Source: Planctomycetes bacterium GWF2_41_51
Lineage (GTDB): Bacteria; Planctomycetota; Phycisphaerae; Sedimentisphaerales; UBA12454
Assembly (NCBI GenBank): GCA_001825665.1
Contig: MHXZ01000018.1
Location: forward strand, 972 to 64,971
DNA: 64,000 nucleotides
Direction of reading: 5' to 3'
The notes beneath the pieces are model-generated. The model was not told the origin of the DNA and made no database searches. It saw only the letters and a list, made by a program, of their open reading frames with translations. Made by a program: the position numbers and the translations under genes. Numbering within the stretch: the stretch's first letter is position 1; each line of letters starts with the position of its first letter. Below are positions 4,227 through 42,653 of the stretch, piece by piece.

Positions 4227-4397
4227 TCGTTTTATTCTAACGGTTTTAAAACAAACAACTTGCAAAATACGCATATTCAAAATTCGCCTGAAATGGTCAT
4301 TGCCGAGCTTTTCTGGTTTTATGCCTCAAAATTTTTATCATTTCATAAGTCTTGTTATTACAAGCAGTTAAAAAATATAAAAAATTGTTTTCTGCAC

Positions 4398-4413
4398 TGG
4401 CACGGCGTTTGCT
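4398..4413 (+). promoter_or_regulatory. Sigma54 (RpoN) -24/-12 promoter
   Basis: TGGCACG-GCGT-TTGCT matches the TGGCACG-N4-TTGCW consensus exactly. It sits about 50 nt upstream of the ATG at 4465. Confidence 0.7.
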
Positions 4414-4464
4414 TTTATATATAGCGAGGGCGAGAAAAAGTCGTCTTGAGAAAGAAGGTTTTAA

Positions 4465-4884
4465 ATGCTCGTCCTTGTTAAAGCAAACGTTTTAGTCTTG
4501 GGATTTGGAGGAAGAAGCGATGCCTTGAAGGCGTTACCGATTCGCAAGTTGTTTGCTGAAACTGGTTTTGAAGCCAGTCGTTCTTTAAAAAATGAAAAAG
4601 TGGATGGTGTGATTAGTCTATGGAATTTGCCGGATGCACCGGCTGGAAAGTTCCTGCTAAACTTAAGGTTGGCAAAACCTTATTTGCCTATTATTGCGGT
4701 GGTTGATGCTGACAATATTGAGCAGGAAATCGCAGCCAGAAGTATCGGCTCAACAGCCGTTTTAAGTAAAAACGTCGATAACGATGTTCTTAAACGGACG
4801 ATTATAGAAATTCTTGGACTTGGCGACACCAAAGAAATCCAGAAACTCTGTGCCATTGCAGACGATGAAAATCGTCATATCTGA
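4465..4884 (+). CDS. Small receiver-like (CheY-fold) protein, probably a pseudo-receiver
   Basis: The alternating beta/alpha pattern and LPIIAVV..AVLSKNVD resemble beta4/beta5 of REC domains. By-eye alignment places GG instead of the acidic pair and no Asp at the phospho-acceptor position. Confidence 0.4.
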   Translation: MLVLVKANVLVLGFGGRSDALKALPIRKLFAETGFEASRSLKNEKVDGVISLWNLPDAPAGKFLLNLRLAKPYLPIIAVVDADNIEQEIAARSIGSTAVLSKNVDNDVLKRTIIEILGLGDTKEIQKLCAIADDENRHI

Positions 4885-4976
4885 CACGGGCCAAAGACCG
4901 AACAGTTAAATGGACCCGATTTATCGATGGCAGGCACTAGTTTATAGGGAGGGAGCGCAGAGAAAAGAAACAATAA

Positions 4977-5414
4977 CTTCTTCTCCTCCTCCAAGGTGGG
5001 TTGTGATCGGACAGTGATAGATGATTACAGCCCCCAGAGAGCAAGCATGGCTTAATGCCATGAGATTATAGGGCTCAGGAAGTTTTCTCCTCCTCCCAAA
5101 TGAGATGGGCTTGATACGAACAGTGATAATTCGGTTGAGCCCAACTCGAGAGCAATCACGGTTGTTGGGACCGTGTTTATTATAGAGGCCGTCTGGTATT
5201 GAATCAGGCGGATCGCTCACGATGAGTTTTCTCCTCCTCCCAACGATGGGTTATGACTGGACAGTGATAGATAGTTGTAACCCTATCGAAATCAGCCATG
5301 GCATAGCCATGAAGATATAAAATAATTCATTTTCTCCTCCCAGAGAAATAGGGTTGTAACCGAAAGTGAATATCGGCTACAACCCTTTGTTAAAAGACAT
5401 AGTCCTTGACTATG
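4977..5414 (+). repeat. Four imperfect tandem modules (starts about 4977, 5083, 5227, 5330)
   Basis: CU tracts are CTTCTTCTCCTCCTCCAA, TTTTCTCCTCCTCCCAA (x2) and TTTTCTCCTCCCAGAG. Hairpin 1 lies at 4998-5033, 5107-5142, 5248-5283 and 5351-5385, with the loop core CAGTGATA in modules 1-3 and AAGTGAATA in module 4. Hairpin 2 lies at 5046-5062, 5157-5175, 5297-5311 and 5398-5414. Confidence 0.85.
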
Positions 5415-5454
5415 AGTGAATAATCTGCTAAGGAATGAAGCATCACCCAATGTA

Positions 5455-5506
5455 GGCCCCGGCCATAAGATCACTGTTCGGTCTTAGGTCGGGGCCGGTT
5501 TTTTTT
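5455..5506 (+). terminator. Rho-independent terminator
   Basis: A 10-bp GC-rich stem (GGCCCCGGCC / GGTCGGGGCC, one G-U) is followed by GG and T8. Confidence 0.8.
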
Positions 5507-5626: not shown

Positions 5627-7324
5627 ATGAAAAATATCGATCTTGAAAAATATTCTTCAGCTTTCACTTTGGCGGATATGGAAATTTTTGTATTTCCGGA
5701 ATTGATGTATTCGCTGCTTCTTGCCAATATAATGAGTCCTTTGATTTGGAAATGGCGAGAGGATAAATCATTCAAAAAACTCGAAGGCAAAGACCCATAT
5801 AAAAAATTGATGCGGCTCCGCCAGTTTATCATGGATGAATTTGAATTTAATCTCGACCTTGAAACATGGGGATTGACGGATAAAAAATCAGAAATAAAAA
5901 GATTTGAAAATTTTCTCACAGAGAAGGAGATTTCCGAAAGTAATGCTCTGTTCGGATACGAAGGCGATAAATATTATTATGATGTAGATATCAGAAAACA
6001 TTTCGGCCTCGATAAATATACTACCGATATAATTCCCTACTGGAAAACCGAAACTGTCGAAGCTATGAACGCCTTTCGGCATAAGAAAGGCTATAAAACG
6101 GGCGCAGGCGAATGTGTTTCGCTGTCAACTTTGTATGCGGCGGCAGCGTTTATTGTCTGCGGCATACCACTTGAAGATATTTTTTTAATTCTCACTCCTT
6201 TGCATTCACAGAATTATATAGATATCAACGATGGCATTATTACAAACAACAGAAGACTCGTAACCAAGGCGATGTGGTTCAACGGCACTGAAACTTCCGA
6301 CAAGGCCCAGCGTGCTCTGCGCAACGAACAAATAACAATGGTCGCTCATACAAGCGGGCTCATCCATTGCCTGTATAAAGACGCTACAATTAACAAAACC
6401 GAATACCAAAAATTCCTCGGCAAGCTTAATAATTATCTTTATTATCCTCTCGAACCGTTAGGCGTCGCCAATTTCCTGCGCAGCAAAGGTCAGTACCAAA
6501 AACATTTCCAGTTCTGCCGTGACTGCCGCGGCAACGCGCAATTTATCAAGGCCGAAAAACTGTTTTCGTATGAGCATGGCAGCAATTTCAGGGTTTGCGA
6601 TCCTACCCATGAAAAACTTCTTGCGGAAGTGCACGAGGAAGATTTCTCAAATCACGAATATGCAAAAAGAATCCGCTGCGACCAGTTTAAGGAATATATG
6701 GGCAAAAAGAAACCGGACATAAACACTGAAGATGGGCGTAAAGAACTTGCGCACGTTTTGTCAGATTATATTCCCGATTCCGAAAAATTCGTCGCCGAGC
6801 TTTACGATTTTCTGCATATCGAACCGAGACTGCCGAGTGAAGATAAAAATTATATCAATGGCGAACCGATAAAAATCACGCCGGATATGAGCAGAGAGCA
6901 GATAATCGATTATCTCAAAAGCATAAGAGATAAAAACACAATTGCCGATTTAGCCTTTTACGCATACCGTGATATGGAAACCTGCGATTGGCAGCCCTAT
7001 ATAAAATCCGCAATTGAACGAAGTCCTGTATCGATTGGAATGACTAAAGATAAATCAATACAGGAATGCTTCGATTGGCTTGCAAATATGCCCAATGAAT
7101 CGATATATGATAACAAAAGACTTGCCCAGCCCGATGAAGTTGCAAATTATGGCCGCGGCGATGGTATCGAAAAAGCAATCACCCTCGCAAATATTATCCA
7201 TAAAAGAGAACCAACCAAAAAAATAGATATCAATATCAATAAAGAAAAAGTTGTTTTGACTGCCGACGAAAAATTTGAATTTGAAAGCCCAAAAGGATTT
7301 GAGAAAGATATAATAATATCTTAA
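5627..7324 (+). CDS. Hypothetical protein with a transglutaminase-like cysteine-protease core
   Basis: GAGECVSLSTLYAAAAFIVCGIPLEDIFLILTPLHSQNYIDIND fits the Cys...GIP...His...Asp order of the transglutaminase-like fold. The rest is unrecognised. Confidence 0.45.
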   Translation: MKNIDLEKYSSAFTLADMEIFVFPELMYSLLLANIMSPLIWKWREDKSFKKLEGKDPYKKLMRLRQFIMDEFEFNLDLETWGLTDKKSEIKRFENFLTEKEISESNALFGYEGDKYYYDVDIRKHFGLDKYTTDIIPYWKTETVEAMNAFRHKKGYKTGAGECVSLSTLYAAAAFIVCGIPLEDIFLILTPLHSQNYIDINDGIITNNRRLVTKAMWFNGTETSDKAQRALRNEQITMVAHTSGLIHCLYKDATINKTEYQKFLGKLNNYLYYPLEPLGVANFLRSKGQYQKHFQFCRDCRGNAQFIKAEKLFSYEHGSNFRVCDPTHEKLLAEVHEEDFSNHEYAKRIRCDQFKEYMGKKKPDINTEDGRKELAHVLSDYIPDSEKFVAELYDFLHIEPRLPSEDKNYINGEPIKITPDMSREQIIDYLKSIRDKNTIADLAFYAYRDMETCDWQPYIKSAIERSPVSIGMTKDKSIQECFDWLANMPNESIYDNKRLAQPDEVANYGRGDGIEKAITLANIIHKREPTKKIDININKEKVVLTADEKFEFESPKGFEKDIIIS

Positions 7325-7333
7325 TAAGTAAGT

Positions 7334-8875
7334 ATGGATAAGCAATTTAACGATAAAACTAACAATATGACCGAAGAACAGGTGCGATGTCTTACACGAT
7401 TTAAAATGCGTCGTTTTTTCGATGAAATTGAGAAAAAGGCAAAAAGACTTAAGCCCGAAAAATTTATTCCTTATGTTCTTAAGTTTTTTCATAATCCGAT
7501 GAGAAGGGAGATAATTGGTCCTCATACAATTTTGCAAGCAATAGAAGCAAATTGTGCTTATCACAAAAGTGGATACGATGAAGAAATTACGCATAAAAAA
7601 TTCGCTGATATAATTAACCTAATAATGAAATCTGAAGAGGAGAATGATTTTTATTTATGGTCAATCCATAATAGATTAGAGATTTTTTTTCAATTTATAA
7701 ACAGAATACAAATTGAAGTTCAAAAGACGGGCTTTTCTAAGTATTATTTATCGCGATATTGGAATTTATTTTATGACAATGATCATATACGAAAAATGCA
7801 TAATGATTTTGAAAATATTTATAAAATATCTGTAGAAAAATGGTTTTTGTGTTCATTTGCAATGTATGCGATGTTTGCAAAAGACTTTATCATACCCAAA
7901 GAATTTAAAATTTCTTCAAGTATGAGTATCGATGAAAATGACATTAGCACATATTTAAATTTTAGTTGTTATTCTGTCGCAGAAATACAGGAAAGATATT
8001 TTGAAACAAGAAAAAATATTAAAGAAGAATTTCATTTTCTTGTAAGAACAGTATTTGTAGAAAGGCCAATTGTTTTATTAGATGGCGATCAATTGGTTGC
8101 GCCAGTTCCAGAGTTGTTATTCCGTCATATGGGACATGGATTAAATGATTTATTTGAAAAAATAGATTCTTCTTACGGATGTTATTTAGGTAAAGCTTTT
8201 CAGGAGTATACAAAAAAAACATTAAATTGCCTAAGTAATGTAGTTCTATATTCAAATGAAGAGTTAGAAAAATTATCCGCAGGAGACAAAAGTTGTGATT
8301 TTCTTTTGGCTACACAGTCAGAAAATATCTTAATTGAGTGTAAGGCGATTGACTTAAAAGTTAGAACTCTGACAGAAAATGCTATATTTAACAGTAATGC
8401 GTTTTCTAAAATTAAAGATGGAATCTGTCAAATTGATAATACATTGAATAATATCATGAATGGGAAATTGTGTTTGCCTGGAATTGATACAAAAAAACCA
8501 TTCTTAAAGATGGTTGTTACTTTTGGTGAAATGTTTGGGTTTAACAGTGATTGGATATTTAATAAAATGTGCCCACAAATAAACTATGATGAGGAAAAAA
8601 ATCTTAAGCCAATGATTTTCTCAATAGCAGGACTTGAAAAGTTTGTGTTGTATATAGAAAATTCAAGTGAATCTCTCATTGATATTTATCATGCAAAACG
8701 GAAAGATGGATATTTTGCGACAGGTGATTGGGATAATTATTTAAGTAGTAAGATTGCTTCTATTAAACCAATAAAAAATGATATAAATTTTCTTAATGAG
8801 GGCTTTGATAGTATGCTTGATAAATTCGAAATTGATTTTGCAGGTAGAGAAAATATTTTAGATGATCATGACTGA
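7334..8875 (+). CDS. Hypothetical protein with a PD-(D/E)xK nuclease-like motif (AT-rich gene)
   Basis: FQEY...SCDFLLATQSENILIECKA fits the E...D...ExK restriction-endonuclease-like signature. The start is 10 bp after the upstream gene, and the gene is visibly AT-rich. Confidence 0.45.
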   Translation: MDKQFNDKTNNMTEEQVRCLTRFKMRRFFDEIEKKAKRLKPEKFIPYVLKFFHNPMRREIIGPHTILQAIEANCAYHKSGYDEEITHKKFADIINLIMKSEEENDFYLWSIHNRLEIFFQFINRIQIEVQKTGFSKYYLSRYWNLFYDNDHIRKMHNDFENIYKISVEKWFLCSFAMYAMFAKDFIIPKEFKISSSMSIDENDISTYLNFSCYSVAEIQERYFETRKNIKEEFHFLVRTVFVERPIVLLDGDQLVAPVPELLFRHMGHGLNDLFEKIDSSYGCYLGKAFQEYTKKTLNCLSNVVLYSNEELEKLSAGDKSCDFLLATQSENILIECKAIDLKVRTLTENAIFNSNAFSKIKDGICQIDNTLNNIMNGKLCLPGIDTKKPFLKMVVTFGEMFGFNSDWIFNKMCPQINYDEEKNLKPMIFSIAGLEKFVLYIENSSESLIDIYHAKRKDGYFATGDWDNYLSSKIASIKPIKNDINFLNEGFDSMLDKFEIDFAGRENILDDHD

Positions 8876-9785
8876 AAACGCCAACAGGAAGTTCAATATT
8901 GCCGGAACTGCGTTTGCGGTCTCATCGCTTTTTTTTGGTGTGCCGGGTCCGCTGATTATAAAATATATCGCTCCGCATATAGATGTCTGGACACAGAATT
9001 TTCTCCGTTATGTTGTTGCTGCCGCGGTATTGATTCCTTTTGCGCTGATATCACGCGAAAGGGCGATTTTTAATAAAATTATCTGGCGAAAAACTTTGAT
9101 TATCGCATTTATCAATGTCATAATGCAGTGTTGCTGGGGTGCGGCGTTCTATTACATCAATCCGGCCTTTATAACACTTTTGGCAAAATCCTCAATTTTT
9201 TGGACTTCCGCGATTTCGCTCATTTTCTTTGCCGATGAACGGCTGTTAGTTAAAAGCAGAAATTTTTGGCTGTCTTTTTTTATCGTCGTAATCGGGATTA
9301 TCGGCGTAACTGTTTTCAAAAACGATTTTTCAACCAAAGCATCAATCATCGGTATCGTTTTAACGCTTGGGTTTGCTTTCAGTTGGGCGATATACACGAT
9401 ATCCATAAAAGTTTTGCTGAAAAGCAGTAATTCCACCACGAGTTTTGCGGTGGTATCGGTATATACAGCGATTGCTCTCGGTATTTTGGCTTTCGTATTC
9501 GGCAAACCGCAGCAATCCATGGCTATGTCTAATTTCGGCTGGTTTCTTCTGGCCATAAGTGCTGTTACGAGTATTGCCGGTTCACACAGCACCTATTATG
9601 CAGCGATAAAAAGGATAGGCTCGACCATTCCGCCTCTTATTGTTCTCGCCCAGCCGTTTCTGGTTTTGCTGGTTTCCAGAGTGGTTTTCAACGAATATCT
9701 TAACGCATATCAATGGTTTTTCGGTTTATTACTCATTGCAGGCTCAGCACTTGCAATCAAATCTCAGGATTACCTGAATAGATAA
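8862..9785 (+). CDS. EamA/DMT-family transporter
   Basis: About 10 TM helices in two similar halves, as is typical of drug/metabolite transporters. Confidence 0.65.
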   Translation: MIMTENANRKFNIAGTAFAVSSLFFGVPGPLIIKYIAPHIDVWTQNFLRYVVAAAVLIPFALISRERAIFNKIIWRKTLIIAFINVIMQCCWGAAFYYINPAFITLLAKSSIFWTSAISLIFFADERLLVKSRNFWLSFFIVVIGIIGVTVFKNDFSTKASIIGIVLTLGFAFSWAIYTISIKVLLKSSNSTTSFAVVSVYTAIALGILAFVFGKPQQSMAMSNFGWFLLAISAVTSIAGSHSTYYAAIKRIGSTIPPLIVLAQPFLVLLVSRVVFNEYLNAYQWFFGLLLIAGSALAIKSQDYLNR

Positions 9786-9873: not shown

Positions 9874-10203
9874 ATGACTGAAAAAACAAAAAAAATAGTG
9901 TATGAAAAACAGGCGGAAATATTAAAGGCGCTGGCTCATCCGGTTCGTGTCGCTATTCTTTATTTTCTTAAGGATGGCGAACAGTGCGTCTGCGATATCG
10001 CAAAGTATGTCGGCTCTGAACGGTCAAATGTTTCAAAGCATCTTTCCGTTTTAGTGTCCTGCGGCGTTCTGGATTTTCATAAAGAAGGACTAAACGTAAT
10101 ATATCGTTTGAAAGCCAGATGCATTATGGATTTTTTTGAATGTATAACCACTTGTCTCAAGCAGCAGGCAAACGAAAATATAAAACTCCTCAAGGCTATG
10201 TAA
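9874..10203 (+). CDS. arsR: ArsR/SmtB-family metalloregulator
   Basis: Winged HTH with the metal-site motif EQCVCDIAKYVG..SNVSKHLSVL. Confidence 0.85.
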   Translation: MTEKTKKIVYEKQAEILKALAHPVRVAILYFLKDGEQCVCDIAKYVGSERSNVSKHLSVLVSCGVLDFHKEGLNVIYRLKARCIMDFFECITTCLKQQANENIKLLKAM

Positions 10204-10204
10204 T

Positions 10205-11374
10205 ATGAGCATAAAAGCTGAAAGTAAAAAATTAATTCTGATAATTGCCGTTTTTCTTTTCATTTATTTTTTACCAATCGGCAATACGCGTTTTGATAAC
10301 GCCATTATGCAATCGCTGGCTCTTATTAAATGGTATGCAAGAGAGCATGTGCTTCTTTGTCTTATTCCGGCGTTTTTCATAGCGGGGGCTATTTCAGTTT
10401 TTGTCAGTCAGGCTTCGGTTATGAAATATCTTGGCGCAAAAGCTAATAAAATCCTTGCGTATGGTGTTGCATCGGTTTCGGGAACTATCCTTGCGGTTTG
10501 TTCCTGTACTGTTCTTCCGCTGTTTGCGGGGATTTATAAGATGGGCGCCGGATTAGGGCCTGCTTGTGCGTTTTTATATTCCGGCCCGGCGATAAACGTT
10601 CTTGCGATTATTTTAACTGCGAGAATTCTCGGTTTCCAGTTAGGTCTCGCGCGAGCAATAGGCGCAATCCTTTTCAGTATTGTAATTGGTTTATTAATGC
10701 ACTTTATTTATCGAAAAGAAGAAAACCAGAAAGCCGAAAATGCAATCGCTATGCCCGAGGCGGAAAAGAGCAGGCCGCTTTGGCAGAACGGTTTATATTT
10801 CGCGTCGATGGTCGCTATTTTGGTTTTCGCGAATTGGGCAAAACCGATTCAGGAAAGCGGGGCATGGGCTGCTGTTTACTCTGTTAAATGGATTATTACC
10901 GCGGTAAGTCTTGCTGCTTTGTTTGTTTTTCTTTTTCTGTGGTTCAAAAAAGATGATATGGTTCAGTGGACAAGTTCGACGTGGACTTTTACAAAGCAAA
11001 TTTTACCTTTACTTTTCGGAGGTGTTATTGTAGCAGGCTTTTTGCTCGGCACCCCTAGCGGCGAAGGTATAATACCTTCAAAATGGGTTTCGGCGGCAGT
11101 CGGCGGCAATTCAATTCGTGCCAATTTGTTCGCATCGGTTGCGGGTGCATTTATGTATTTCGCGACTTTGACGGAAGTTCCAATCGTTCAGGGGCTTGTC
11201 TCGGCCGGTATGGGTAAAGGTCCCGCTCTTGCGTTATTACTCGCAGGTCCGGCTCTTTCGCTGCCGAGCATGCTCGTTATCCGCAGCGTTATGGGGACTA
11301 AAAAAACAATTGTATTTGTCTCGCTTGTCGTTGTAATGGCGACTATTTCGGGAATGATTTTTGGAGCGTTCTAA
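10205..11374 (+). CDS. Permease of the ArsP/COG0701-type family (vicinal-Cys permease)
   Basis: Multi-TM protein with a CSC motif in a TM helix (ILAVCSCTVLPLFAG), sitting in an ars operon. Confidence 0.65.
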   Translation: MSIKAESKKLILIIAVFLFIYFLPIGNTRFDNAIMQSLALIKWYAREHVLLCLIPAFFIAGAISVFVSQASVMKYLGAKANKILAYGVASVSGTILAVCSCTVLPLFAGIYKMGAGLGPACAFLYSGPAINVLAIILTARILGFQLGLARAIGAILFSIVIGLLMHFIYRKEENQKAENAIAMPEAEKSRPLWQNGLYFASMVAILVFANWAKPIQESGAWAAVYSVKWIITAVSLAALFVFLFLWFKKDDMVQWTSSTWTFTKQILPLLFGGVIVAGFLLGTPSGEGIIPSKWVSAAVGGNSIRANLFASVAGAFMYFATLTEVPIVQGLVSAGMGKGPALALLLAGPALSLPSMLVIRSVMGTKKTIVFVSLVVVMATISGMIFGAF

Positions 11375-12186
11375 TGGAATCTAATGAAAAAATAAGGGAA
11401 GCGGTTCGCAAGGGATATGGCGAAATTGCCAAGGGCAGTTCGTGCGGCTGCTGCGGCTCATCATCTCCATCTAAACTTGCCAAGGGAATCGGCTATACGA
11501 AACAGGAACTTGCTGCTTTACCCGATGGCGCGAATATGGGGCTTTCCTGCGGCAATCCTACTGCAATTGCTAATCTTCAGCCCAGCCAGGTTGTTTTGGA
11601 TTTAGGCAGCGGCGGAGGGTTCGATTGTTTCATCGCCGCTAAAAAAGTCGGCAAAAAAGGAAAAGCAATCGGCGTGGATATGACTCCGGATATGCTCAGC
11701 AAAGCAAGAGTGAACATTTCGAAATTTACAAAAAAAACAGGTCTTGCCAATGTCGAATTTCGACTCGGCGAAATTGAACATCTTCCTGTCGCTGATAAAA
11801 GTGTCGATGTCGTTATCTCAAATTGCGTAATCAATCTTTCACCCGCAAAGCAGCAGGTCTGGAATGAAATCGTCCGTGTTTTAAAACCGAAAGGCAAAGC
11901 CTGTATTTCCGATTTGGCTCTAAAATCACCTCTGCCCAAAAAAGTTTTAAAATCTGCGGCCGCTTTGGTTAGCTGCGTCGCAGGTGCGGTACTGATTGAT
12001 GATACAATCAAAATGGCCAGGAAAGCGGGCTTAAAGAAAATCGACATCGAAGAAAAAGTATATAATATTGATGTAATGGCCGATTGCAGCGATCCGCTTT
12101 ATAAAGAGGTTAAGCAATATCTGCCAAAAGGCAAAAAACTTTCAGATTACATCGTAAGTATAAATGTTACGGCATTCAAGCTGTAA
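11374..12186 (+). CDS. arsM: Arsenite S-adenosylmethionine methyltransferase
   Basis: SAM motif [13 protein letters not shown] plus the conserved Cys positions ([26 protein letters not shown]). Confidence 0.85.
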
Positions 12187-41381: not shown

Positions 41382-42653
41382 ATGGAAAAAAATGAATTCC
41401 TTTATCTTTCGTATCTCTCTCCTCCTCTTTTGGCCGGCGGAGTAGCCAGAGTAGAGAATAATTGCAAATTACTGCCTGTCTATGGTTGGGAACCGACTTT
41501 GTTGACAGCTTGTGTTGAAAACAGTTCTGAAACCGATACAAATTTTGCACAAAATGGAGTAAATGTTTTAAGACCAAACTGTTTTTTAAAAGAAAATAAA
41601 GTTAGAGCGCTTCCGAAGAAAAAAGGCAATAAAATTTCATTAAAATCTGCTTTTTTAAAAGGACTTGCAAGATGGTTTTTAATGCCTGATCGTCAAGTTC
41701 TATGGAACAGATCAGCTAAAAAATTAGCATTGTCAAAAGCCGAAGAGCATGACTGGAAATGCGTTTTCGCATGTCTTAATCCGATAAGCACAGTTGGTTT
41801 GGGGTATGATCTTGCTAAAAAATTGAACCTGCCATTCGTTATGGAATTTCAGGACATAATATGTAATCACTACGAAGGTGGGCCACCAACATTTTTGCAT
41901 CGTTATTTGCGGACAAGCATAGTTCGCAAAGCTGCAAGTTATGCAAAAGCAGTGATTGTTATGAGCAATTCCATGAAAGACTGGGTTGTAAAGAATATGC
42001 CTGTAAAAGCTGAAAATGTCTATGTAATACCAATAGGCTTTGTCTCAGCCGATCAGGATTATATATTTTCGCAAGCAATTAAACAAAATGATAAATTTAC
42101 GATGGTATATGCGGGAACATTTCAAAGAGACAGAAGACCGGATGTAACTTTTAGAGCGTTGAAGATGCTCTTGAATGATAATAGAATAAGTGCTGATAAA
42201 ATTAAACTGGTCCTTATCAGCAATCTTGATAAAAGTATTGTGTCAGAATTTGGAGTGGAACAAGTAACAGAAGTTTTATCAATGATGCCAAGAAAGGACG
42301 TTTTCAGATGGTATGCAAAAGCTGATCTATTGCTTTTGATCTGTGATAAAATGTCTTATCAGAATTACACTGTTCCAGGCAAGATATTTGAATATCTTAT
42401 GACTGAAAAGCCAATCCTCGGGCTGGCAGATAAGACAAGTGAAATATCACAAATACTCAACAAAGCGGGGACAGGTTACACAGCAGATGCGGATGATATT
42501 GAAGAAGTTGCAGGAAGAATTTATTACTATTACAAGTTATGGGAAAATAATGAACTTAAATCGGAAGCAAATAAAGATTATATCAACACGTTTAGTTGCG
42601 GAAGACTAGTAAAACAATTAGGCGATATACTTGCCGAAGTTACCAAAAAATAA
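41382..42653 (+). CDS. GT-B fold glycosyltransferase (GT4-like)
   Basis: C-terminal half shows the typical GT-B pattern (VPGKIFEYLMTEKPILG). Confidence 0.5.
   Translation: MEKNEFLYLSYLSPPLLAGGVARVENNCKLLPVYGWEPTLLTACVENSSETDTNFAQNGVNVLRPNCFLKENKVRALPKKKGNKISLKSAFLKGLARWFLMPDRQVLWNRSAKKLALSKAEEHDWKCVFACLNPISTVGLGYDLAKKLNLPFVMEFQDIICNHYEGGPPTFLHRYLRTSIVRKAASYAKAVIVMSNSMKDWVVKNMPVKAENVYVIPIGFVSADQDYIFSQAIKQNDKFTMVYAGTFQRDRRPDVTFRALKMLLNDNRISADKIKLVLISNLDKSIVSEFGVEQVTEVLSMMPRKDVFRWYAKADLLLLICDKMSYQNYTVPGKIFEYLMTEKPILGLADKTSEISQILNKAGTGYTADADDIEEVAGRIYYYYKLWENNELKSEANKDYINTFSCGRLVKQLGDILAEVTKK

Follow-up and report, generated by a model that had tools for sequence, protein, structure and literature searches.

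The analysis of a 64-kb stretch of the genome of the Planctomycetes bacterium GWF2_41_51 (contig MHXZ01000018.1; the whole 64,000 nucleotides are called the window below) revealed a compact regulatory locus on the plus strand. A sigma-54 promoter is followed there by a gene for a 139-aa protein with the fold of a response regulator receiver domain (REC) and, directly after the stop codon, by four copies of a structured RNA unit and an intrinsic terminator (Table 1). We consider it probable that the pseudo-receiver open reading frame (ORF) and the four-unit structured RNA form one sigma-54-dependent transcription unit. The comparative set consisted of 79 genome loci encoding a pseudo-receiver homolog, in which 855 kb was scanned on both strands; loci L003-L019 and L070 are referred to as the window clade. 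A second sample, taken from the RNA side, comprised 68 metagenome contigs retrieved with an exact unit sequence. The juxtaposition of a receiver-like gene and a repeated RNA had been pointed out in an earlier note on this DNA, and it proved to be conserved in relatives across the 79 fetched loci.

The promoter sequence TGGCACGGCGTTTGCT had been described in the earlier note as an exact match to the RpoN consensus, and this description holds. Its GG and GC dinucleotides are exactly 10 nt apart, as expected of a -24/-12 element, and the sequence also agrees with the extended RpoN consensus YTGGCACG-N4-TTGCW. The pattern TGGCAC-N5-TTGCW occurs only once in the 64-kb window, at this site, while 0.06 matches are expected from shuffled sequences. 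A slightly relaxed form, TGGCA[CT]-N5-T[TC]GC[AT], was found in 77 of 80 sources, ahead of whichever element of the module comes first; the remaining three are all cut by contig ends. Away from the module there was no match in 855 kb on either strand. Judged by its sequence and its conservation, the sigma-54 promoter appears to be real, and transcription is predicted to start at about 4423-4425, inside the conserved TATATA region. Predicted sigma-54 promoters have been reported in Planctomycetota, mostly in Planctomycetia and with a weaker signal in Phycisphaerae (PMC12316311).

A second element, conserved throughout the family, was found upstream of the promoter and reads CRTAAST-N11-AA-NN-ASTTAAAAAATT. 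It contains the dyad TAAST-N15-ASTTA, centered near -65 and followed by an A6 tract, and its right half-site begins 31-34 nt (mode 32) 5′ of TGGCAC in 61 of 77 loci. A generic search for the best inverted repeat 5′ of the promoter gave the same result as shuffled sequences in this AT-rich DNA; the dyad was revealed by position-specific counting. The dyad and A-tract would fit the needs of a dimeric activator with a Fis-type helix-turn-helix (HTH) plus an intrinsic bend, and we infer that the dyad is bound by a bacterial enhancer-binding protein (bEBP).

An orthologous bEBP gene of the GAFTGA type is present upstream and on the same strand in 38 of the 79 loci (46-100% identity to the copy in L037), and 29 of these 38 genes end 240-410 nt before TGGCAC. 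The proteins of L037 (361 aa) and L052 (381 aa) contain only Sigma54_activat, AAA lid and HTH_8 domains, located behind a tail of 50-70 aa, and no PF00072 domain was found in this family among the best 120 clusters (318-410 aa). On domain composition, the bEBP of the relatives is sensor-less, that is, without an N-terminal regulatory domain. None of the curated NCBIfam cut-offs was reached (the PrsR model gave 288 bits against a cut-off of 503), and identification of the protein as PrsR or another named equivalog was rejected because all scores were below these cut-offs. No bEBP gene adjoins the module in the window clade; in the window genome the activator is presumably encoded elsewhere.

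The ATG of the 139-aa ORF is located 67 nt downstream of the start of TGGCACGGCGTTTGCT. A Shine-Dalgarno-like GAAGG within GAAAGAAGG (4450-4458) ends 6 nt 5′ of the ATG, and the leader is conserved inside the window clade. Specific pairing of this purine-rich 5′ untranslated region (UTR) with the pyrimidine tracts of the RNA units was considered and rejected, as the own-genome duplex energy was about the same as that with shuffled UTRs (p 0.57). Substitutions among orthologs are commonest at third codon positions, as for a coding gene.

The earlier note had described the ORF as CheY-like in fold and devoid of both the acidic pocket and the acceptor Asp. Structure prediction, structural searches and profile alignment to CheY all agree with that description. 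The Pfam Response_reg (PF00072) score of the window protein is 26.4 bits, under the gathering cut-off of 30.2, and many homologs have a precomputed PF00072 match. The AlphaFold model, made with 26 homologs (pLDDT 83, pTM 0.77), is a (beta/alpha)5 sandwich with one additional C-terminal helix at residues 122-137. The best 50 Foldseek matches listed from PDB were receiver domains or receiver-containing proteins and one designed response-regulator-like protein (TM 0.65-0.87); Spo0F, CheY, PmrA, KdpE, NtrC1 and NtrX are among them. The family profile aligns ‘VISxWdLP’ with ‘VISDWNMP’ of CheY, which places Leu52 at the position of the phospho-acceptor Asp57. Across 26 homologs this position is occupied by L/V/S/T/R/K/Q/A/N and never by Asp. 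The acidic pair after beta1 is replaced by Gly-Leu/Phe/Cys in the family, and neither the Thr/Ser after beta4 nor the Lys after beta5 is conserved. All five residues of the phosphorylation chemistry are absent from the 139-aa protein, which, read from the sequence, makes it a pseudo-receiver family-wide and not a phosphorylatable receiver. The invariant residues are W53, L55, D57, G61, F63, K71, P75 and an alpha4-beta5 stretch, QEIAARSxG..AV; the alpha4-beta5 face is the surface used by receivers for protein contacts. The window protein is identical to a hypothetical protein recorded for GWF2_41_51. All 113 homologs are stand-alone proteins, about 107-170 aa in length, and come from metagenome bins of Phycisphaerae/Sedimentisphaerales.

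The region 3′ of the ORF is strongly structured and repeat-bearing (minimum free energy (MFE) z-score -7.3). The stop codon ends at 4884 and a hairpin begins 2 nt later. The earlier note had mentioned only a weak hairpin and no U-run at this junction; the hairpin is followed by AUUUAU and was not called in the terminator scan. The repeated unit is about 100 nt long, with the consensus AAnUUUnUCUCCUCUUCUUnGCUGGGUUUGnA..loop..CAAACCCAGCAnGAAAnCAAnCACGGCUnnnGCCGUGAUAAnnAUAA, in which a pyrimidine tract of 12-20 nt is followed by two hairpins, P1 (10 bp) and P2 (6 bp), with an A-rich linker between them, and by an AU-rich tail of the type GAUAA..AUA. A covariance model of the unit (R1) identified exactly four units in the 64-kb window, all within 4975-5423. 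A fifth match at 41411-41461 was weak, located inside an ORF and without both hairpins, and was discarded as spurious. In the 79 loci R1 found 313 units, all on the ORF strand, and nhmmer found 303 with none on the minus strand; the number of units per locus is between 1 and 7, most commonly 3. In a MAFFT alignment of units 86.6% of cells were paired, against 33-44% with the partners slid. For 146 distinct model-aligned units the value was 93%, against 29-41% in slid controls, and 218 double-change cells were counted against 50 in shuffles. These alignments indicate that both helices of the unit covary strongly. CUCC is present in 234 of 250 pyrimidine tracts, and 85 contain CCUCC, the anti-Shine-Dalgarno core.

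Rfam gave no match at E<=1 for the window region or at gathering score for 12 relatives; a 20-bit RybB match was on the minus strand inside the ORF and was regarded as noise. We also rejected the idea that each unit is closed by its tract, paired to a purine-rich pseudo-Shine-Dalgarno sequence 3′ of P2: the energies with own and swapped tails were -7.38 and -7.39 kcal/mol, and only 94 of 321 unit tails carry a Shine-Dalgarno-like motif. Such closure may occur in leader units located beside real Shine-Dalgarno sequences, for example in L105.

Both ends of the RNA domain carry conserved elements. The sequence AAGACCGAACAGU (4894-4906), which forms the loop of the 5′ boundary hairpin, and ACUGUUCGGUCUU (5473-5485) in the apical part of the terminator are complementary; the match, designated I1, covers 16 nt and is 94% complementary, and both sequences are nearly invariant in most window-clade loci. 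The terminator hairpin (5455-5496) is long and GC-rich. The purine-rich element UAGGGAGGGAG is mostly paired in the predicted ensemble (unpaired probability 0.26 over 4945-4957). The position of the array between the stop codon and the terminator of the mRNA itself fits that of a 3′-UTR-derived RNA, and the complementary boundary elements can be taken as a hint that the RNA is processed from the mRNA.

It was also observed that the P1 apical loops of units 1-3 (ACAGUGAU; 5010-5020, 5119-5129, 5260-5270), predicted to be 81-93% unpaired, are complementary over 8-11 nt to the apical segment of the terminator AUCACUGUUCG (5470-5480). Matching variants, GGUCAGUGAUC and GAUCACUGGCC, are present in the P1 loops and the terminator loop of L077. 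This complementarity suggests loop-loop contacts or competition with terminator folding.

The earlier note had proposed that the RNA is co-transcribed with the ORF from the sigma-54 promoter, and the arrangement in relatives argues for this. In 16 loci between one and six units are located between the sole sigma-54 motif and the ATG, and in a few loci nearly all units are upstream; the position of these units indicates that the promoter stays at the front of the composite and not beside the ORF. Terminator-like matches between ORF and array were found in 11 of 75 loci, and all are P2-type hairpins with the AU tail of the unit. In most window-clade loci the array ends in a strong terminator, and in other loci it is closed by long GC hairpins. 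Among the metagenome contigs, 24 have at least 700 nt on both flanks, and 21 of these carry the pseudo-receiver gene on the same strand. No sigma-54 motif was found inside the array in the 855-kb scan, and a sigma-70 scan of the region was negative. Co-transcription of the ORF and the array from the sigma-54 promoter is thus well supported by comparative sequence data, because the strand is shared, units occur on either side of the ORF in one promoter-terminator frame and there is no real terminator in between.

Table 1. Features of the pseudo-receiver/RNA locus (positions in the window)
Feature	Positions	Strand	Basis or remark
Candidate bEBP site: dyad CATAAGT (4344-4350), N15, AGTTA (4366-4370); A6 tract (4370-4375)	4344-4377	+	Family-wide conservation
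Sigma-54 (-24/-12) promoter TGGCACGGCGTTTGCT	4398-4413	+	GG 4399-4400, GC 4411-4412
Conserved TATATA melting region	4414-4424	+	3′ of the -12 element
Predicted 5′ UTR, about 41 nt, purine-rich	4424-4464	+	Read from sequence
Pseudo-receiver gene, 139 aa, REC fold and C-terminal helix	4465-4884	+	Pfam, AlphaFold, Foldseek, third-codon-position substitutions
5′ boundary hairpin of RNA domain	4887-4918	+	Followed by AUUUAU
Purine-rich element UAGGGAGGGAG, complementary to pyrimidine tracts	4945-4955	+	Conserved in window clade
RNA unit 1 (pyrimidine tract 4977-4992, P1, linker, P2, AU-rich tail)	4975-5071	+	R1 65 bits, E 2e-11
RNA unit 2 (pyrimidine tract 5083-5097)	5079-5185	+	R1 61.9 bits, E 9e-11
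Extra hairpin between units 2 and 3	5188-5211	+	MFE fold
RNA unit 3 (pyrimidine tract 5227-5241)	5223-5320	+	R1 52.9 bits, E 6e-9
RNA unit 4, degenerate (pyrimidine tract 5330-5341)	5324-5423	+	R1 32.7 bits, E 6e-5
Conserved 3′ element GAAGCAUCACCCAAUGU	5437-5453	+	Followed by intrinsic terminator
Intrinsic terminator: stem arms 5455-5464/5487-5496, inner helix and loop with AUCACUGUUCGGUCUU, U8 5499-5506	5455-5506	+	Terminator scan

The analysis of distant clades connected the unit to a second class of genes. In about 28 loci PEP-CTERM genes are located 3′ of the array and on its strand, and in L047 units alternate with such genes. A single orphan unit just 5′ of a PEP-CTERM gene, with measured gaps of 12-45 nt, was found in L138 and in three flanked contigs without the receiver gene; the overall range given for orphan single units is 12-60 nt. 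A unit ends at most 200 nt upstream of 27 of 94 PEP-CTERM ORFs and of 12 of 306 other ORFs (odds ratio about 10, p 1.6e-10), in counts that include paralogous genes and so are not independent. A GGAGAA Shine-Dalgarno sequence precedes 25% of PEP-CTERM genes and 4% of other long ORFs (p 8e-7), an enrichment that could reflect high PEP-CTERM expression alone; highly expressed genes tend towards strong Shine-Dalgarno sequences. PEP-CTERM genes also pair better with the tracts of their own genome (-11.3 vs -9.2 kcal/mol, p 0.0025). No PEP-CTERM gene in the fetched loci has a strict sigma-54 motif of its own. Based on these observations the unit looks like a leader element of PEP-CTERM mRNAs, and the array linked to the pseudo-receiver looks like its multicopy version. 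By analogy with CsrB and CrcZ, the array could act as a multicopy decoy.

Several further sequences were noticed near these genes. In L105, L112, L126, L135 and L138 a conserved segment UGAUUUGGACAUGACUUAAAGCUGAAAACUAAC is present about 40 nt 5′ of the orphan units, without a sigma-54 motif. The ACTTAAA in this segment resembles the right half-site of the upstream dyad of the module, and the segment may represent a different type of promoter for PEP-CTERM genes. A small conserved hairpin, GCUGCGG-N5-CCGCAGC, is located between the last unit and the next PEP-CTERM Shine-Dalgarno sequence in L047 (7170-7200 and 9360-9385), L048, L077 and L134. Tandem repeats (G/A)GAGAAAACUUUAGG with a period of about 16 nt were found beside the arrays of L040 (about 7110-7310) and L047 (about 9170-9240 and 10030-10100) and about 100-200 nt upstream of the ORF in L051. 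The repeat core GGAGAAAAC is the exact complement of the core GUUUUCUCC of many pyrimidine tracts, and the repeats may serve these tracts as a natural partner or as a counter-decoy.

The decoy interpretation has to be weighed against the possibility that the units are only cis-acting UTR elements, which affect the stability, the processing or the translation of their own mRNA, with neither a trans-acting sponge nor a separate RNA. We regard this as a possibility to be kept in mind, at rather less than even probability. It would account for the units in the pseudo-receiver 5′ UTR of 16 loci, for single leader units directly before PEP-CTERM genes, for units interspersed among the PEP-CTERM cistrons of L047 and for the many relatives without a strong terminator between the array and the next PEP-CTERM gene. 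It does not sit easily with the window clade, where the array follows the ORF, ends in a strong terminator and has no cistron behind it that it could regulate. A cis element, moreover, would not need three to seven tandem copies, and the complementary boundary elements at the two ends of the array suggest a defined RNA domain.

The array could also have a promoter of its own, of an unrecognized type, with the sigma-54 promoter serving the pseudo-receiver gene only. The negative sigma-70 scan is a weak argument here, as housekeeping promoters of Planctomycetes are poorly defined; the hairpin at 4887-4918 with AUUUAU could be a partial terminator, and the orphan units before PEP-CTERM genes have no sigma-54 motif, so other promoters can express units. 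We nevertheless find this arrangement unlikely: in the 16 loci mentioned above the only sigma-54 motif is upstream of units that precede the ORF, no promoter was recognized in the spacer of 60-220 nt between stop codon and first unit, this spacer is conserved only within clades, and ORF and units stay together on 21 of 24 contigs with adequate flanks.

Slightly less likely still is binding of the units by the pseudo-receiver itself, either as a ribonucleoprotein or as a protein with its own RNA antagonist. The linkage of ORF and units wherever flanks suffice would agree with such binding, and pseudo-receiver domains do occur in RNA-binding antiterminators such as AmiR. Against it, neither ANTAR nor any other RNA-binding domain was found in the 139-aa protein, which has only the REC fold and one helix; the family is near-neutral (mean isoelectric point (pI) 6.5), and its invariant surface is the alpha4-beta5 protein-contact face.

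A chance sigma-54-like motif next to selfish repeats of the repetitive extragenic palindrome (REP) or miniature inverted-repeat transposable element (MITE) type, without dedicated function, is contradicted by the comparative data and highly improbable: the region is AT-rich and intergenic and a single match per 64 kb arose in 6 of 100 shuffles, but the motif has a fixed place in 77 of 80 loci and was found nowhere else in 855 kb, and the units are not scattered as REP/MITE copies would be, those of the window being confined to 4975-5423 and those of relatives being one-stranded, located only at the module or at PEP-CTERM leaders, and marked by compensatory base changes.

Besides the non-independence of the PEP-CTERM counts and the expression effect mentioned above, a number of observations weigh against the interpretation of the locus as a bEBP-activated unit that produces a decoy. 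No bEBP gene was detected in the 64-kb window with GAFTGA/ELFGH regular expressions or by tblastn with the bEBP of relatives, as the earlier note had stated, and the bEBP ortholog of the window genome was not recovered among the best 120 clusters of this large family. No RpoN box for rpoN was found within the 64-kb window. Fold prediction gives the pyrimidine tracts no marked single-stranded character (unpaired probability 0.24-0.48 vs 0.39 overall), and there are no PEP-CTERM genes near the module in the window clade. The near-neutral pI, which argues against the pseudo-receiver as an RNA binder, is silent on its actual partner. Finally, the transcription start, the read-through from ORF to array and any processing are what we infer from conserved anatomy.

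The data can be accommodated in the following model. The sensor-less bEBP, with its AAA+ sigma-54 domain and Fis-type HTH, would bind the dyad and activate sigma-54 RNA polymerase, giving a single transcript of about 1.08 kb from about 4424 to the U8 terminator at about 5506. The 5′ part of this transcript would be the pseudo-receiver mRNA and its 3′ part the four-unit structured domain. The pseudo-receiver might be a trans-acting partner of another protein, with the invariant alpha4-beta5 face (QEIAARSxG..AV) as its contact surface. Its most economical partner would be the sensor-less bEBP, on which it could feed back as a detached regulatory domain, like PspA on PspF or like the receiver of activators of the NtrC1/DctD type, which represses AAA+ assembly. 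The array would titrate the reader of the PEP-CTERM leader element, for which a pyrimidine-tract-binding factor and Shine-Dalgarno regions of the GGAGAA type are candidates. The complete scheme, in which Phycisphaerae would control PEP-CTERM genes post-transcriptionally with a two-hairpin leader element of about 100 nt that has an anti-Shine-Dalgarno-like pyrimidine tract, a sigma-54-driven decoy of 3-7 copies and a feedback loop of pseudo-receiver and bEBP, is put forward as a tentative proposal.

Several known systems have related features. In the CbrB-CrcZ system of Pseudomonas a bEBP gene is followed by a sigma-54-dependent multi-motif sponge RNA, and CrcZ* is processed from cbrB-crcZ read-through (PMC5113210). 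A resemblance to this layout was suggested in the earlier note and is seen in relatives, 38 of 79 of which have a bEBP gene directly upstream on the same strand, in the order bEBP gene, sigma-54 promoter, multi-motif RNA. The RNA can be viewed as an mRNA 3′ UTR in both cases, and the logic of a multicopy RNA against a single-copy mRNA motif is shared. However, in our case the ORF is located inside the sigma-54 unit, the bEBP of relatives has no receiver and the bEBP gene is not adjacent in the window. The motif is pyrimidine-rich with two hairpins, unlike the A-rich Hfq motif of CrcZ, and no homology to CrcZ was found, there being no Rfam match in the window region or in 12 relatives.

NrsZ of Pseudomonas aeruginosa is an RpoN/NtrC-dependent small RNA (sRNA) with three similar modules and is processed (PMC4253122). 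It is alike in being a sigma-54/bEBP-dependent RNA of repeated similar stem-loop modules, a dependence that is predicted from sequence in the present case. Its modules are about 60 nt long and their loop motif base-pairs with rhlA, whereas the units described here are about 100 nt long and carry a pyrimidine tract. GlnZ is a 3′-UTR-derived sRNA from the NtrC-activated glnA (PMC9731577). In the present case, too, an RNA domain follows the ORF and probably shares promoter and terminator with it; GlnZ is released by cleavage. GlnZ is, however, a single short sRNA of the Hfq type, while the array is 620 nt long and in some relatives is located in the 5′ UTR.

Sensor-less bEBPs controlled in trans by a protein from their own target operon are represented by the pairs PspF-PspA and HrpS-HrpV. 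The bEBP of the relatives likewise has AAA+ and HTH only, and its presumed target operon begins with a small non-enzymatic protein; by analogy this protein would be the regulator, but it has a receiver fold and is no homolog of PspA or HrpV. Sigma-54 control of PEP-CTERM genes is known in Proteobacteria, where it is exerted by PrsK/PrsR (PMC1569441). Both systems connect PEP-CTERM genes that have long non-coding leaders with a sigma-54 promoter, an upstream activator site, here a candidate one, and a dedicated bEBP. PrsR differs in having a phosphorylatable receiver and a kinase partner (the bEBP described here scored 288 against the 503-bit cut-off), and the structured RNA leader motif and the lack of a strict sigma-54 motif at the fetched PEP-CTERM genes are further differences. 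In the CsrB/RsmZ systems target mRNA leaders carry a short element once, near the ribosome-binding site, and a dedicated decoy RNA carries it in many copies. The unit is similarly single in leaders beside the ribosome-binding site and multiple in the array; it consists of a CU tract and two hairpins instead of GGA in hairpin loops, and the promoter type differs.

Sigma-54-dependent regulatory RNAs beside bEBP genes and sigma-54 control of PEP-CTERM genes in Proteobacteria are thus a known theme. What is new is the RNA motif and the placement of an ORF among its units, the family of stand-alone pseudo-receivers, the activator without a sensor domain and the phylum; Rfam and the literature were searched and held no description of the RNA motif or the pseudo-receiver family. 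To our knowledge, almost nothing is known of RNA-based regulation in Planctomycetes. The locus defines a structured RNA motif that is widespread (some 300 copies, which covary, come from about 80 genome loci, and 68 metagenome contigs hold more), together with a stand-alone pseudo-receiver family and a sigma-54 architecture with a fixed-distance activator site and a sensor-less bEBP. It carries the recurring pattern, a bEBP gene beside a modular sigma-54-dependent RNA, beyond Proteobacteria. Through the link to PEP-CTERM genes one can test how these abundant bacteria of sediment and groundwater control their surface- or exopolysaccharide-associated proteins, and the decoy system, if true, would represent Csr/Crc-like logic built from entirely different parts.

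The genes downstream of the module were also inspected. A 565-aa protein without functional annotation is encoded directly after the array terminator (5627-7324, plus strand) and is kept at this position in 14 window-clade loci (67-89% identity). It holds the position taken by PEP-CTERM genes in other clades. Its sole domain match, to Alba near the C-terminus, is weak (E 0.002), and PDB, NCBIfam and PADLOC gave no match; a G-x-G-E-C...H...D pattern noted by eye is reminiscent of transglutaminase-like cysteine proteases. The 513-aa protein that follows (7334-8875, plus strand) has a match to the antiphage protein GapS1 of 99.7 bits, below the cut-off of 320, and no PADLOC match; PDB sequence searches with both downstream proteins gave nothing usable. 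Among the fetched relatives the 513-aa protein was found in L003 alone, so that its gene may represent a small variable insertion. An ArsR-family regulator, a permease and an S-adenosylmethionine (SAM)-methyltransferase-like gene at 9874-12186 (plus strand) apparently form an operon of the arsenic-resistance type, unrelated to the module. In the unrelated lineages of L020, L023, L045, L052 and L058 a tRNA gene is located on the minus strand 1-2.7 kb downstream of the ORF, and the opposite-strand tRNA gene is a recurring boundary of the locus.

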